A stretch of 19,111 nucleotides of DNA from a virus. Lineage: Duplodnaviria; Heunggongvirae; Uroviricota; Caudoviricetes. Below are positions 235 through 5,656 of the stretch, piece after piece. The notes below the pieces were generated by a model that saw only the letters and a program-made list of their open reading frames with translations, was not told the origin of the DNA and did not search any database. A program made the translations under genes and the position numbers. Positions within the stretch are counted from its first letter, which is position 1. Each line of letters begins with the position of its first letter. The stretch is from the IMG/VR virus record IMGVR_UViG_3300047558_000092, one strand, 5' to 3'.

Positions 235-534
235 CACGCACCTACAGGCTCAATGCTTGTTCGTTACTTCAGTGACGAGGTTCCTGAAGGTTTGGCCTAT
301 AACATTGACATTCCTCTAGTGAGCGGTACATTCGTTAGTCAAGACGAGATCAATAGTCTTATCGAAGCCATGAAGCCTGTGAGTCAACTTCAGCGTCTTG
401 CTGAGTTACAGGCAGTAGAGATTCCTGAGTTCCTGTCTGCCTTGATTCCTCCAGAACCTGAAGTTGTTGTGGTTGACGAAAGCCAGCCTATCATCCTCGG
501 TGTAGACCCTCTTCCAACTCCTGTAGGTGCCTAA
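205..534 (+). CDS. Hypothetical protein, possibly a fibre/adhesin assembly partner
   Basis: 109-aa ORF with SD AAGGA, directly after the adhesin-like gene. Function is inferred from position only. Confidence 0.6.
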   Translation: MNIQHEIISFHAPTGSMLVRYFSDEVPEGLAYNIDIPLVSGTFVSQDEINSLIEAMKPVSQLQRLAELQAVEIPEFLSALIPPEPEVVVVDESQPIILGVDPLPTPVGA

Positions 535-848
535 TGTTAGATCAAAGTAAACCCGCAATGCCTACCTATTCTTTTAACGTGGAAGGTACTACAGTAAACA
601 CTTTTCATATTGATAAAGCTGGTGAAGGTCATCCAAAGCACGAACATAGTTACGATCATGTCACTCAAGTACATAGTGGAAGACTTCTAGTTACTACAGC
701 TGATATGACTTTTGAAATGACTAAAGATACTAAGCCTATATGTTTTCCAGCTAATGAGTGGCATGAGTTAGAAGCTATTGAAGATAACACAGTTTTTTGT
801 AATATTTTTGGTTTGGGTAAAGATGCTCAAAAACTTTCAGATATGTAA
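534..848 (+). CDS. Cupin-fold (RmlC-like) protein
   Basis: Cupin motif 1 HPKHEHSYDHVTQVHSGRL and motif 2 PANEWHELEAIED; TAATG coupling to the upstream gene. Confidence 0.8.
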   Translation: MLDQSKPAMPTYSFNVEGTTVNTFHIDKAGEGHPKHEHSYDHVTQVHSGRLLVTTADMTFEMTKDTKPICFPANEWHELEAIEDNTVFCNIFGLGKDAQKLSDM

Positions 849-851
849 AGA

Positions 852-1037
852 ACCTACCTTAGGTCCGAAGTCCCTTCGGTTTTAGGCGTCCCTCGAATCT
901 GTTGCGAGGTAACATAGAGGTAACACTCTAGGTAAGCATTGCCAAATGCTTATGCAAAGGATACAGCGTGTTGTTTTGCGGTACTACGAAAAGTGTACTC
1001 TGGAATCGTAACCAGAACTAATTTAAGGAGAGGCTCC
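852..1037 (+). ncRNA. Candidate structured RNA or leader: 7-8 back-to-back hairpins
   Basis: Stems read by eye: 858-886 (core ccgaag/cttcgg), 891-909 cctcg/cgagg, 915-930 tagag/ctcta, 933-952 taagcatt/aatgctta, 954-979 (G.U-rich), 981-998 gtac/gtac, 999-1016 tctgg/ccaga, 1027-1037 ggag/ctcc. G.U pairs favour the + strand. Confidence 0.55.
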
Positions 1038-1763: not shown

Positions 1764-1978
1764 CTTTAATTGCAGCTGCGACAGTAGTAATCGCGTTATT
1801 CATTTCAGCACCTATTATGTTAGGTATGTACATGGATACAAATAAGAATAATTATGTCGTTGAATCTAAGTCTAAACAAGTGGACATAAAGATTGAAAAG
1901 TTAGATGACATGATTAAGTATAACGAAAAACTTCTCAAAGAGCTTGAGAAAAATAATAAGGAAAATTATGTTAGATAG
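1733..1978 (+). CDS. Small membrane protein, N-terminal TM plus coiled coil (i-spanin-like architecture); start probably ATG 1733
   Basis: MDKSNNSSLVALIAAATVVIALFISAPIMLGMY followed by a K/E-rich heptad segment; overlaps the end of the upstream gene. Confidence 0.6.
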   Translation: MDKSNNSSLVALIAAATVVIALFISAPIMLGMYMDTNKNNYVVESKSKQVDIKIEKLDDMIKYNEKLLKELEKNNKENYVR

Positions 1979-2252
1979 TTATAAGGGCATGACAGCCGAT
2001 CAAATTGAAGTTCGCGTATGGGCTTTCGTAGTTAAAGCAATTACTTCAATGGTATTTTTAATTGCTATGGGTGTTATGTGGGCTATTGCCTTCGAAGACC
2101 AATCTACAGTGTTAGCACCAATCGATGCTATCTTCCTAGAGATTTTAAAAGCTATTGCGTTTATGGGTGTTGGTACATTGGGTGGTATTTCTGGTCGTAA
2201 GGCCGCTGGTGCTATAGCAGAAAAATTAACTGAAGAAAATCCAGAGGCTTAA
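1968..2252 (+). CDS. Two-TM small membrane protein, holin-like; start probably ATG 1968
   Basis: SD AAGGA at 1958-1962. Two hydrophobic helices (VWAFVVKAITSMVFLIAMGVMWAIAF; IFLEILKAIAFMGVGTLGGI) and a charged C-tail. Confidence 0.6.
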   Translation: MLDSYKGMTADQIEVRVWAFVVKAITSMVFLIAMGVMWAIAFEDQSTVLAPIDAIFLEILKAIAFMGVGTLGGISGRKAAGAIAEKLTEENPEA

Positions 2253-2253
2253 T

Positions 2254-2601
2254 ATGGCATTTGAAAAAGGTAAATCAGGTAATCCTAATGGTCGCCCTAA
2301 AAAAGTTAATCCATTAGATAAACCTACAAATCGTGACTTAAAAGAGCGTGAATTAATTATGCTTCTTCGTAAGATTAAGCCACACGTTGCTAAGGCTATC
2401 ACTTCTGCTGCTGAAATTATGCAGAATAAAGAAGCTAGTCATCAGAACCAACTAAAAGCAGCCACTATTTTACTTGACAACTATCGCAGACTTACACTAG
2501 ATGTATATGACAGCGAAGATGCAGAAGAAGTAGAAGGTACAGAGATTCAGCAACATAATGCTCCAATCTTTAGCTTAAAAGTAGTTAACGAAAACACATA
2601 A
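2254..2601 (+). CDS. terS: Terminase small subunit-like protein with DUF5681-type N-terminal motif
   Basis: FEKGKSGNPNGRPK motif, helical body, position immediately upstream of terL. Confidence 0.7.
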   Translation: MAFEKGKSGNPNGRPKKVNPLDKPTNRDLKERELIMLLRKIKPHVAKAITSAAEIMQNKEASHQNQLKAATILLDNYRRLTLDVYDSEDAEEVEGTEIQQHNAPIFSLKVVNENT

Positions 2602-2609
2602 GGAAATAA

Positions 2610-4076
2610 ATGAGTCAAGTAGTTATCGGACCAGCATCCAAAAAGCAAGAGATGTTTTTAAATAGTGATGCCACTATTACATTAGCGGGTGGAGCAGCAG
2701 GTTCAGGTAAAACTTATACTGCTTTACTTATAGCCTTAAAATTTATGCAGCATCCTAGAGCTACGGGGGTTATCTTCCGTAGAACTTCTAAGATGCTAAC
2801 CGCACCCGGTAGTATCTGGCACGAAGCCGTAAACCTTTACACAAGCCTTTACCCAAATCTTCGTATCAGAACCCGCGAACTAGAACTTGTATTCCCTAAT
2901 GGTGCTTTACTCAAGTTCAGTCACATGCAGCATGCAATGAACATGTATGACCATAAAGGTGGTCAATACAGTTTAGTTATTTTTGACGAAGCAACAGACT
3001 TCGAAGAAGAGATGGTTGTGTACTTACTCTCACGTATGCGTAATGCTTACGTAGATTACACACCTCAAATGTTCTTAATGACTAACCCTGATTATAACAG
3101 TTTCTTACGTCATTGGCTTGAAGACTACTATCTAGACCCACAAACAGGCATTCCATTACCAGAGAAGACAGGCGATAAACGTTTCTTCTTCCGTCAAGGT
3201 AATACGATGATTTGGTATGACAGTTTAGCAGAAGCAGAAGCAATTCATGGTAAGGGTGATGAATCTGGTATTAGTTCATTTACGTTTATTGGTGCTACTT
3301 GTCGAGATAACCCTCCACTCTTAAAAGCTCAACCAGATTATATCAGCCGCTTAATGTCCTTACCTCGTGTAGAGAAGGAAAGATTGCTGGATGGGTCATG
3401 GTATGCTCGTATGGAGTCTGCAGGGCTGTTTAAACGCGAATGGTGCGGTTTAGTTGACCTTCCTAATGGCAGGGCCAAGCAGCGCGTTAGAGCGTGGGAT
3501 TTCGCCTTTAGCAAGCCTTCTGAGCAGTATCCTAATCCAGACTGGACTCGTGGTGTATTAATGTCTAAAGATGATGCAAAAGTCTATACAGTTGAAGATG
3601 TTGTATCTTTACGTGACAGAGTACATGAAGTTGAGAAATTAATTTTCCAGACTGCCTTGCACGATGGTCAAGGTGTAATTATTTCAATTCCATTGGACCC
3701 TGCTGCAGCTGCTGGCGCTTACGCCAAGGACTTACAACGCAAATTAGCTGAGATGGGTTTCGTATGCAGACTAACTAAACCAGTGAAGTCTAAGATTACA
3801 CGTTTTGCTCCATTCTCAAGTATTGCTCAAGCTGGATTCGTAAATATCGTAAAAGCTAACTGGAATAAAGACTTCTTCGATGAACTAGAAGTTTTTGATG
3901 GTGACCCTAAGAAAAAGGATGACCAAGTTGACTGCTGTAGTGACTGTATGTTACTTTTGAACAAAGAGCAATCGCTTCCAATATTCTCATTGCCTGATTT
4001 AACAGGTTCTAACCCTTTTGATAGTATGCCAACGCAGTCACTGTCAATGCCTCAATTTACAACTATCGGACTTTAA
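2610..4076 (+). CDS. terL: Terminase large subunit
   Basis: Walker A GGAAGSGKT, Walker B LVIFDEAT, MTNPD coupling motif, nuclease RAWDFA and C-terminal KKDDQVD. Uninterrupted, 488 aa. Confidence 0.95.
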   Translation: MSQVVIGPASKKQEMFLNSDATITLAGGAAGSGKTYTALLIALKFMQHPRATGVIFRRTSKMLTAPGSIWHEAVNLYTSLYPNLRIRTRELELVFPNGALLKFSHMQHAMNMYDHKGGQYSLVIFDEATDFEEEMVVYLLSRMRNAYVDYTPQMFLMTNPDYNSFLRHWLEDYYLDPQTGIPLPEKTGDKRFFFRQGNTMIWYDSLAEAEAIHGKGDESGISSFTFIGATCRDNPPLLKAQPDYISRLMSLPRVEKERLLDGSWYARMESAGLFKREWCGLVDLPNGRAKQRVRAWDFAFSKPSEQYPNPDWTRGVLMSKDDAKVYTVEDVVSLRDRVHEVEKLIFQTALHDGQGVIISIPLDPAAAAGAYAKDLQRKLAEMGFVCRLTKPVKSKITRFAPFSSIAQAGFVNIVKANWNKDFFDELEVFDGDPKKKDDQVDCCSDCMLLLNKEQSLPIFSLPDLTGSNPFDSMPTQSLSMPQFTTIGL

Positions 4077-4091: not shown

Positions 4092-5570
4092 ATGGCACGA
4101 CCAAAGAAACAAGAGACTATTGAAAAAGCCACAATGGGTGACACACCAGAACGATTTAAATTATCAGAAGCTGGTTACTTAGGCTTAAACGTCTATGCTG
4201 GTGTAACTCAGGATGAAATTAAGAAAGAGCTAAACTTTCCAAACAGTATCCAAACGTATAAGCAAATGTCTTATCACGGTACTATTAACTCTGCACTAAC
4301 TCTGTTCGATACACTCGTCAGTAAAGCAGATTGGAAATTTAAAGCCCCTAAGGATGCAACCCCTGCCGAATTAGACCAAGCCAGAGTCATTAACGAAATG
4401 ATGAACGACTTACAAGGTCAGACATGGGCTGATTTTATCAGTGAAGCCCTAAGCTCTAACGTATATGGCTTTTCCGTACACGAGAAGGTCTATCGTAGAC
4501 GCACAAAAGAGAACGGCTCTAAGTATAACGATGGTTTAATCGGTTGGAGAAAACTTCCAATTCGTAATCAAGAAACTATTCAACGCTTTGTCTTCTCAGA
4601 TGACGGTAACGAAATTATCGGTGTACGTCAAGACCTTACACAAGTAAGCGACCCATATAACCGCTACTCACAACGCTCCAACAACGCAGTCGTGCTACCA
4701 CGTAGCAAGATTATGCTATTTAGAGCTGGTAAGCACAAAGGTGACCCTTACGGTAAGTCTCCATTACGTGATGCTTACTTAGCATGGCGTTTCTTATCAG
4801 TGATTGAAGAGATTGAAGCTAACGGTGTAGCAAAAGATTTAGCTGGTCTTCCAGTTCTCAAGTTGCCACCTCAGTATCTAGCTGCCGATGCTTCTCCAGA
4901 CCAGAAAGCTATTCGCGCTTACTACGAAAACGTAATGCGTAACCTTCAGGTTAACCAACAATCTGCACTGATTCTACCACAAGCTTACGACCAAGATACG
5001 CGCCAGCCTTTATTCAGCTTAGAGTTACTCAGCTTGAACGGTAGTAAGGCAATGGACACTAGCAAGATTAAAGAGTATTACAAGAATTTAATTCTTACCT
5101 CTTTATTTGCAGATTTGCTAACTATGGGTCAAACTGGCGGTGGTTCTTTTGCATTAGGTCAAATTAAGAGTTCATTATCTGGCAACGCTGCTGAAGCAAT
5201 GCTCAAGAAAATTACTCAAGTTATTAATGATGACTTAATTCGTCAAACCTACGAACTTAACGGATGGGATACATCTCGTATGGGTTACATGGACTTTGAC
5301 AATATCCAAACAGAAGATTTAGAATCATTCAGTAAAGCTGTCCAACGTTACGCAAGTACAGGTATGCTTGAAATTGACCGCGATGTACTCAACCGTATTC
5401 GTGAATCTGTCGGTATTGATGCTCTTCCAGAAGATGAAGAACCAAACCTAGAAGCAATTCCAGCCAATACCTCTCGTAGTGGTGACGGTTTTGCAACAGC
5501 TGGTGAAGGTACTGCAACCAATCCATCAGGTACTGATACGTCAAGTAATAACTTAGAAAACGCAGGTTAA
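4092..5570 (+). CDS. Portal protein
   Basis: 492 aa directly after terL; GDPYGKSPLRDAY, GFSVHEKVY and GGSFALG motifs typical of DUF935/Mu gp29-like portals; SD AAGGAG. Confidence 0.85.
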   Translation: MARPKKQETIEKATMGDTPERFKLSEAGYLGLNVYAGVTQDEIKKELNFPNSIQTYKQMSYHGTINSALTLFDTLVSKADWKFKAPKDATPAELDQARVINEMMNDLQGQTWADFISEALSSNVYGFSVHEKVYRRRTKENGSKYNDGLIGWRKLPIRNQETIQRFVFSDDGNEIIGVRQDLTQVSDPYNRYSQRSNNAVVLPRSKIMLFRAGKHKGDPYGKSPLRDAYLAWRFLSVIEEIEANGVAKDLAGLPVLKLPPQYLAADASPDQKAIRAYYENVMRNLQVNQQSALILPQAYDQDTRQPLFSLELLSLNGSKAMDTSKIKEYYKNLILTSLFADLLTMGQTGGGSFALGQIKSSLSGNAAEAMLKKITQVINDDLIRQTYELNGWDTSRMGYMDFDNIQTEDLESFSKAVQRYASTGMLEIDRDVLNRIRESVGIDALPEDEEPNLEAIPANTSRSGDGFATAGEGTATNPSGTDTSSNNLENAG

Positions 5571-5582
5571 TTCTAATTACTC

Positions 5583-5611
5583 TTGAATTATGGCTATTTA
5601 TGTGATATAAT
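5583..5611 (+). promoter_or_regulatory. Sigma70-type promoter P1 with extended -10
   Basis: TTGAAT (5583-5588), 17-bp spacer, TG-a-TATAAT (5603-5611). Confidence 0.8.
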
Positions 5612-5620
5612 AGTTCTATA

Positions 5621-5656
5621 AATACCCCGCCTAAACAGCGGGGTTATTCTTGTTTA
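5621..5656 (+). terminator. GC-rich hairpin with imperfect U-tract (terminator or attenuator)
   Basis: accccgc (5624-5630) / gcggggt (5638-5644), followed by tattcttgttt. Confidence 0.6.

Follow-up and report, generated by a model that had tools for sequence, protein, structure and literature searches.

A conserved structured RNA of about 170 bases in the tRNA and packaging region of freshwater tailed phages

INTRODUCTION

What occupies a spacer of 189 nucleotides (nt) between two genes of a tailed phage? The DNA studied here, IMG/VR record IMGVR_UViG_3300047558_000092 (19,111 nucleotides, the whole of which is called the window below), comes from a freshwater tailed phage and holds its packaging and structural arm. 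Between a small cupin-domain gene (534-848) and the next gene, starting at ATG 1038, the GC content rises to 0.42-0.44, against 0.32-0.39 in the flanks. A first inspection of the letters without database searches (the sequence-only reading) had correctly singled out this spacer of about 190 nt as GC-richer. It had drawn seven consecutive stems in it and proposed an undescribed non-coding RNA, such as a protein sponge, an RNA antitoxin mimic or a leader of the downstream membrane genes.

We show here that positions 852-1022 of the window encode, on the plus strand, a genuine structured RNA of about 170 bases that is conserved among relatives, and we weigh what it could do. The nearest cultured relative of the phage is Limnohabitans phage DC31, whose large terminase is 87% identical. 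DC31 is a long-tailed phage of 76 kb that infects Limnohabitans strain DCL3 (PMC12195039); related metagenomic genomes measure about 80 kb.

RESULTS

Homologues define a family with one copy per genome

The 241-amino acid (aa) protein encoded downstream of the spacer served as a handle and gave 80 viral loci (designated by L numbers), in ten of which the spacer sequence was matched by blastn. When these ten copies were aligned, the loops appeared fixed and the stems compensating. A covariance model, R1, was built, and pattern scans on the invariant 3′ part enlarged the family, new members being confirmed with R1; DC31 was found via its terminase protein only. The family now counts 41 distinct loci, from uncultured freshwater phage contigs and from the cultured DC31, and each genome carries a single copy. 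Near-identical DNA of the element occurs in freshwater metagenomes of several studies. Most of the 41 loci are syntenic relatives, and the counts given below are not those of independent events.

In bacterial and archaeal genomes, 32 pattern matches were obtained, none of which passes the covariance model as a true copy. Blastn with positions 500-1800 of the window against 50,697 phage records gave no match, and a loose pattern, TTGCCAAA...TACGAAAAG, returned 120 loci, mostly chance matches, among which the model confirmed no new member. Two further candidates, L109 and L236, were rejected as chance hits.

Covariation and G-U pairs identify a folded plus-strand RNA

RNAfold draws the element as a chain of hairpins, with z scores against dinucleotide shuffles of -2.4 for positions 849-1038 and -2.0 for 850-1022. 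The minus strand scores equally well (z = -2.6), so that the folding energy brings modest support and does not tell the strand.

Covariation was measured on 17 model-aligned homologues, in an alignment fitted to R1. There, 28 of the 44 modelled base pairs display changes on both sides, and 94.5% of cells pair, against 38-48% when the partners are slid by one to three columns; none of 500 shuffles reaches any of five covariation measures. An independent MAFFT/RNAalifold analysis of 27 sequences recovered four of the hairpins, which we number H0 to H7 from the 5′ end (Table 1), namely H1, H2, H4 and H7, with double changes. Listing the sequences one by one gave about ten complementary versions of H6, six of H0 and, over the 41 loci, six fully complementary versions of the H7 stem. 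The loops, GNRA-type loops among them, are invariant while the stems vary.

The strand can be read from the pairs themselves. Hairpins H2-H7 contain 74 G-U or U-G cells against 4 A-C or C-A cells, which shows that the folding molecule is the plus-strand RNA, neither DNA nor antisense. The argument from G·U pairs had already been made by the sequence-only reading; it holds, and so does the proposal of an undescribed structured RNA on this strand, given the strong covariation and the lack of a match in Rfam described below.

Anatomy of the RNA

Homology begins at (A)ACCUACCUU and stops at ACUAAU, whatever the context. Among the seven stems drawn from the window alone, those at 891-909, 915-930, 933-952, 981-998 and 999-1016 recur in relatives with covariation. 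The two others had to be redrawn: 858-886 is better described as H0 followed by H1, both with compensatory variants, and 954-979 is specific to the window, relatives keeping only the short H5. The alternative pairings once suggested between tacct and copies of aggta are not conserved.

Table 1. Features of the window, parts of the structured RNA and positions of the second RNA
Feature	Position	Strand	Remarks
Small cupin-domain gene	534-848	+	ORF list; Pfam Cupin_2 E = 2.6e-5, under curated cut-off
Structured RNA element, H0-H7 and 3′ tail ACUAAU	852-1022	+	Homology, covariation, G-U counts
H0, 5-bp hairpin ACCUA/UAGGU, loop CCU	852-864	+	
H1, hairpin CCGAAG/CUUCGG	865-879	+	Loop GUCNC in relatives
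Conserved junction UUUUAGGCGUC	880-890	+	Alignments
H2, CCUCG/CGAGG, then conserved UAACA	891-909	+	
H3, UAGAG/CUCUA	915-930	+	Double changes at 5/5 pairs
H4, 9-bp hairpin, conserved loop region UUGCCAAA	932-953	+	
H5, short near-invariant hairpin CGUG/UGCG	967-980	+	Little variation
H6, 4-5 bp stem, loop UACGAAAAG with C-G closed GAAAA pentaloop	981-998	+	
H7, UCUGG/CCAGA, invariant loop AAUCGUAA	999-1016	+	
Conserved single-stranded tail ACUAAU	1017-1022	+	Kept before gene, tRNA or terminator alike
Shine-Dalgarno AAGGAG	1025-1030	+	Ahead of 241-aa gene, ATG 1038
241-aa coiled-coil/membrane gene	ATG 1038, through 1763	+	First of three-gene cassette
Rest of three-gene cassette (about 110 aa, about 95 aa)	1643-1978 and 1968-2252	+	
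DUF5681 gene	2254-2601	+	Pfam/PHROG hits; small terminase by position only
T4-type large terminase gene	2610-4076	+	Pfam and PHROG hits
Mu-type portal gene	4092-5570		Pfam/PHROG hits
Second RNA, L229	1129-1331		
Second RNA, L239	4215-4422		
Second RNA, L231	7909-8100	-	
Second RNA, L228	12829-13040	-	
Second RNA, L102	1490-1680	-	

At the 5′ end, H0 exists in compensatory variants CAACUA/UAGUUG, CACUA/UAGUG, CCCUA/UAGGG, GUCC/GGAC and CUACG/CGUAG. A long-range helix, P1, that would hide the Shine-Dalgarno had been obtained with RNAalifold from the first ten sequences and was dropped for this local hairpin; pairing of CCUU with the Shine-Dalgarno is predicted in few sequences, and the competing H0 covaries. 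The stem of H1 varies as CCGAA/UUCGG, CCGU/ACGG, CCGUU/AACGG and CUGU/AUGG. The H1 loop may pair as a pseudoknot with GNGUC at 886-890, a helix that shows G-C/A-U covariation, yet also C-C and A-C mismatches. In relatives, the junction can receive an optional extra hairpin, often with a GNRA loop (GAAA, GCAA, GUAA). The UUAG of the junction (882-885) may form a closing helix with the tail's CUAA (1018-1021), for which one compensatory case was found, UAAG/CUUA in L094 and L314.

Further on, H2 has double changes at three of its five pairs (for instance CCACG/CGUGG, CUACG/CGUAG and CAUCG/CGAUG), and H4 at all nine pairs around a fixed loop. A possible alternative to H5 would pair CGUR (967-970) with YACG of the H6 loop, a helix that is compensated in L233 (CGUG/CACG) and kept through G-U in three cases. 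In DC31 and L233, H6 carries the GNRA tetraloop GAAA. That the loops of H6 (UACGA) and H7 (UCGUA) might kiss was considered and set aside; both are invariant, and the GAAA/GAAAA variation suggests a GNRA-type H6 loop instead.

Two loci contain a degenerate second copy of the last 50 nt or so of the element (L240:440-520 and, in the oriented contig, L242:1790-1870). It reads GGCGAAAAC...UCUGG-AGAUCGUAA-CCAGA-ACUAAU, comes after the complete element and directly before the DUF5681 start, and looks like the scar of a recombination between two RNA variants.

A second structured RNA with the same 3′ end

Another conserved structured RNA, of about 200 nt, was noticed in five loci (Table 1). Its place is upstream of the tRNA array, where a small gene with four cysteines (zinc-ribbon-like) follows at about 20 nt, and the start of this RNA appears to fall directly behind an extended -10 promoter (TGATATAAT). 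In a set of only five sequences, 13 of the 33 predicted pairs covary. It ends in a hairpin GCUGG-AUAAGUAA-CCAGC followed by ACUAAU, near-identical to H7 and the tail of the element; a terminal hairpin and ACUAAU common to both RNAs point to a common processing or binding signal.

The element is linked to tRNAs and usually to packaging genes, and is independent of the membrane cassette

The constant neighbours of the element are a transfer RNA (tRNA) array on the same strand and, usually, the DUF5681 and terminase genes. A same-strand tRNA lies upstream in 30 of the 41 distinct loci, within 300 nt in 15 of them. In DC31 an array of five tRNAs closes with tRNA-Tyr, whose CCA the element directly follows, and in L232 it likewise adjoins the CCA of a tRNA-Tyr. 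Elsewhere tRNAs follow as well: L108 has tRNA-Thr, the element, then tRNA-Met 12 nt on, while tRNA-Met stands at +11 in L326 and tRNA-Thr at +9 in L332. The eight divergent loci outside the DC31 group keep the tRNA link in seven cases and a tight link to a start codon in two. Where the gap between tRNA and element is wider, it is filled by homing endonuclease genes or by the membrane cassette; the open reading frames (ORFs) in such gaps include a GIY-YIG one in L110 and, judged by eye and without a Pfam match, a possible HNH-type one in L105. Homing endonuclease genes have been inserted before or after the element.

Downstream of H7, the DUF5681 gene starts at +20 to +28 in 28 of the 41 loci. 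The others show the 241-aa gene (3 loci), a short ORF with an RF-1 domain (2), a tRNA at +9 to +12 (3) or no start within 40 nt (5); two of these last, L107 and L233, have an intrinsic terminator directly after the element.

The short ORF belongs to another phage lineage (L088:3753-4001 and, in the oriented L325, 19 nt after H7). It encodes 82 aa, has a Pfam match confined to the middle of the peptide release factor domain RF-1 (46.8 bits, profile positions 32-74 of 116) and, to judge by this match, probably misses the GGQ part. A tRNA-Met is called inside its 3′ end in L325. The stretch from tRNAs through the RNA to the terminase is also a hot spot for selfish genes (L105, L110, L232, L107, L240): the GIY-YIG ORF of L110 overlaps the 5′ edge of the element, extra ORFs separate DUF5681 from the large terminase gene (TerL) in L105 and L240, and TerL of L107 is split in two ORFs.

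The membrane genes behave differently. Of the 80 loci with the 241-aa gene, 70 are without the element. Six of the ten carriers (L002, L005-L009) have the cassette upstream, with the element about 1.2 kb past the 241-aa gene and directly before DUF5681; in the window, L001 and L003 the three-gene cassette is found just downstream of the element, and in L084 and DC31 it is absent from that position. The cassette behaves as a movable module with junctions at the ribosome-binding site, the element is independent of it, and the idea of a leader dedicated to the downstream membrane genes has to be abandoned, since only 10 of 80 loci carry the element and six of these have the cassette on its other side. 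On the upstream side, the stop codon of the cupin gene stands 3 nt ahead of the element, and in relatives the position of this gene is taken by unrelated sequence: a tRNA, a homing endonuclease gene or other ORFs.

Comparison with known RNAs

Searching the whole window against Rfam 15 at gathering thresholds gave no match, be it to riboswitches, ribozymes, small RNAs, ROOL/GOLLD, pRNA or Y RNA-like families; at E up to 10, positions 700-1200 returned five chance-level hits of 9.8-18.2 bits, against gathering scores of 41-115. ARAGORN called no tRNA or transfer-messenger RNA (tmRNA) in the window, and in relatives it called the neighbouring tRNAs, never the element. CUGANGA does not occur in the element, and the hammerhead models of Rfam have no hit at E up to 10. 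The statement that the spacer holds neither a tRNA cloverleaf nor a hammerhead core is thus borne out.

By position, the closest known case is that of rnaC and rnaD (species 1 and 2 RNAs) of phage T4. According to the record annotation, these stable, structured RNAs of 119-139 nt directly follow the last tRNA of the T4 array, among whose genes is the homing endonuclease gene segB. This layout is matched by DC31 and L232, in which the element lies on the same strand at the 3′ end of a phage tRNA array. No homology accompanies it, as R1, searched with filters off over T4 positions 68000-76000, reached at most 3.6 bits (E about 1) on rnaC/rnaD. In addition, rnaC ends in a tRNA-like T arm and the element does not, and the T4 RNAs are stable whereas we infer the release of this element as a stable species. 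To our knowledge, the function of the T4 RNAs has stayed unexplained for over 50 years.

ROOL (RF03087) and GOLLD (RF01998) are phage and prophage RNAs with elaborate folds, often encoded near tRNA islands and of unexplained function, in which GNRA/A-minor and loop-loop contacts are important (PMC12286853). Both exceed the element three- to fivefold in length (roughly 500 to more than 800 nt) and are unrelated to it in sequence; the likeness is one of context and theme. The pRNA of phi29 (RF00044) resembles the element as a phage-encoded structured RNA of about 170 nt, and the element usually sits beside packaging genes. It differs in that Rfam gives no match and in that the large terminase and the portal here are of T4 and Mu type, unlike the phi29 motor; a pairing between the complementary loops UACGA and UCGUA, both invariant, would be hypothetical, the H6 loop looking GNRA-type instead.

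Two functions proposed by the sequence-only reading find little support in the family. A sponge like CsrB/RsmZ is unlikely, since the eight loops (CCU, UCC, AAUCUGUUG, GUAACA, GCCA, UUGUUU, UACGAAAAGU, AAUCGUAA) all differ and no binding motif is repeated. A ToxI-like antitoxin mimic is unlikely too: alignment and fold show a single non-repetitive unit without tandem repeats, no dedicated repeat scan having been run on 852-1022, and no toxin gene was seen among the inspected ORFs adjoining the element in the loci examined.

Contigs covering or ending in the element

In four freshwater studies, RNA libraries yielded assembled contigs that cover the element. Such contigs record presence in a library rather than transcription, as DNA can be present, and they show neither ends nor levels. 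In the four runs gene flanks are thinly or not covered, a hole that proves nothing as contigs cannot rank expression. One contig of 187 nt ends at 1019. Another, of 164 nt, from a metatranscriptome (run X15), joins about 1017-1019 (...CCAGAACU) head-to-tail to the 5′ start of the element (CUACCUUAGG...); it is one record from one run, of depth 2.5, and its junction coincides with 6 nt of microhomology (AGAACU). Among 241 million metagenome records, the junction pattern had no hit that would betray a tandem or permuted copy in DNA.

Several metagenomic contigs end in or near the element. The independent contigs L085 and L339 start at the same point inside it, GCGGUGCUACG, and L087 is a further contig broken within the element. 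The shared break is probably due to the identical 3′ part of co-occurring strains, which splits assembly graphs; as genome termini these ends were rejected, being assembly breaks. The element is, in practice, a cause of fragmented assemblies of these phages.

Other features of the window

At positions 144-234, a translation start region (TTAATTAAGGATATCACATGAACAT...) is duplicated in tandem (44/45 bp). An ORF of 15 codons begins in the first copy and stops within the ATG of the second, and the second, with a 1-nt insertion, starts the real 109-aa ORF (205-534). Between the portal gene and the next gene, a sigma-70-like promoter with extended -10 (TTGAAT-17-TATAAT) was noticed at 5583-5644, directly followed by a strong terminator-like hairpin (ACCCCGC...GCGGGGT and a T run).

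DISCUSSION

How could an RNA so well conserved serve these phages? We favour, with a confidence that stands midway between belief and disbelief, a stable folded non-coding RNA of the phage tRNA operon, co-transcribed with it, released and acting through its invariant loops. In its favour stand the selection on the fold, the tRNAs found upstream or directly downstream, a position kept while neighbours change, the single copy per genome, the precedent of the T4 RNAs and of ROOL and GOLLD and, weakly, the RNA-library contigs. The plus strand would be read within a long transcript, from the tRNAs through to the packaging genes, and the element would probably be cut out by the nucleases that mature the tRNAs: RNase P would release it ahead of a tRNA, and RNase E-type cleavage within the AU-rich tail ACUAAU would do so in other places. 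The product would probably be compact, with eight short hairpins, GNRA-type loops and one or two pseudoknots, and its invariant loops would offer a surface to a partner, a protein or another RNA, on which it would act in trans.

Several observations weigh against this proposal. A start codon lies 19-28 nt after H7 in 33 of the 41 loci and a Shine-Dalgarno comes directly after the ACUAAU tail, which also gives the element the look of a 5′ leader. Contigs cannot show ends, and it is by inference that we assign discrete 5′ and 3′ ends to the RNA and let it accumulate separately. In the window itself ARAGORN finds no tRNA in the 850 nt upstream of the element, so that its link to tRNAs comes from close relatives such as L001, with tRNA-Pro 1.4 kb upstream. 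Finally, synteny among most loci makes the counts less than independent.

The strongest competitor, possible though in our opinion on the unlikely side, is a cis-acting 5′ leader of the following gene, normally the first of the DUF5681-terminase-portal late operon. It might control translation start, mRNA stability or read-through, perhaps via a bound phage protein or a small ligand. The distance to the start codon is kept although the gene differs (DUF5681, 241-aa gene or RF-1-domain ORF), and the unit common to site-A and site-B genomes extends through the Shine-Dalgarno. Moreover, the H0 loop CCU(U) is complementary to AAGG, the terminators after the element in L107 and L233 could be expression platforms, the second structured RNA presents the same terminal hairpin and ACUAAU about 20 nt before another gene, and riboswitch-like elements typically show such a complex fold, here with GNRA loops and possible pseudoknots.

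Known leaders offer a further comparison. The EAR element of Bacillus eps operons and the put RNA of HK022 are leader-type RNAs, which control of read-through would make the element resemble. Like them and like riboswitches, it is a folded RNA that opens a long operon or lies inside one, with a ribosome-binding site directly behind it, and some family members are followed by a terminator (L107, L233). It differs in that no conserved switch helix was found and that some copies sit between tRNAs, with no gene to regulate. A riboswitch-type element is expected always directly upstream of the genes that it regulates; here, 3 of the 41 copies have a tRNA at +9 to +12 instead, and 5 have no start within 40 nt.

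Other facts also argue against a leader. The copies followed directly by a tRNA come from three lineages (L108, L326, L332), and DUF5681 is without the element directly upstream in L107, L232 and L233. Few sequences are predicted to sequester the Shine-Dalgarno through CCUU, against a covarying H0, the terminators of L107 and L233 come with no evident antiterminator, and that of L233 has, by eye only, no convincing pairing with the 3′ part of the element. As to the ribosome-binding site, one is expected after any RNA gene in compact phage genomes. In short, a leader explains the constant spacing to the start codon and does not explain copies between tRNAs.

We consider improbable, more so than a leader, that the element serves RNA processing or punctuation, as a self-cleaving ribozyme of a new class or as a structured site where a host or phage endonuclease parts the tRNA precursor from the late mRNA and the new ends are protected. 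The element does stand at the joint of tRNA array and mRNA, its hairpin and AU-rich tail recur at a second joint, its loops and junctions are invariant, and two RNA-library contigs either end at 1019 or join about 1017-1019 to the 5′ start. Yet no ribozyme model of Rfam matches even at E up to 10 and no hammerhead core is present, known processing sites such as those of RNase III in T7 are single hairpins and not 170-nt folds with eight conserved parts, and the contig evidence comes from a single run.

The same head-to-tail contig could mean that the RNA is excised and its ends joined into a circle of about 165 nt, or that head-to-tail multimers exist, which we judge quite doubtful; a template switch of the reverse transcriptase at AGAACU or an unseen tandem copy could produce the contig as well. 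If true, phages would have a new kind of RNA, small, circular or self-assembling, and tied to the tRNA island.

A function at the DNA level, as a packaging site (pac/cos), an origin or an array of protein-binding sites by the terminase genes, seems very unlikely. Terminase genes do adjoin the element in most loci, several contigs end in or near it, and the minus strand folds as well by energy. However, the stems covary and keep G-U pairs, which would turn into A-C mismatches in a cruciform or on the opposite strand; the element is not before a DUF5681 or terminase gene in L088, L108, L325, L326 and L332; and the contigs break at the border of a segment identical between co-occurring strains, as assembly graphs predict. 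Coding by an N-terminal extension of the 241-aa protein from TTG 939, for which the frame is open to 1763, is ruled out by indels of 1, 2 and 13-15 nt among close relatives, inside 939-1037 and upstream, to which we add that substitutions follow base pairs and not codons, that a good Shine-Dalgarno and ATG exist at 1025-1040 and that the same sequence precedes unrelated genes or tRNAs elsewhere.

The element is thus a real RNA family, unmatched in Rfam, that belongs to the orphan structured RNAs of phage tRNA islands. Its novelty was judged against Rfam 15, tRNA/tmRNA and T4 rnaC/rnaD; a catalogue of 10,006 candidate phage RNAs (PMC10690425) lies outside this comparison. For annotation, a long spacer of these genomes is explained, and caution is advised against calling the element a leader of the adjacent genes. 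It stays fixed while homing endonucleases and the membrane cassette move around it. Phage tRNA islands repeatedly carry elaborate RNAs of unexplained role, to which the present family, small at about 170 nt, brings one with very clear covariation, and its occurrence in a cultured phage-host pair, DC31 and Limnohabitans DCL3 (PMC12195039), makes its function directly testable.

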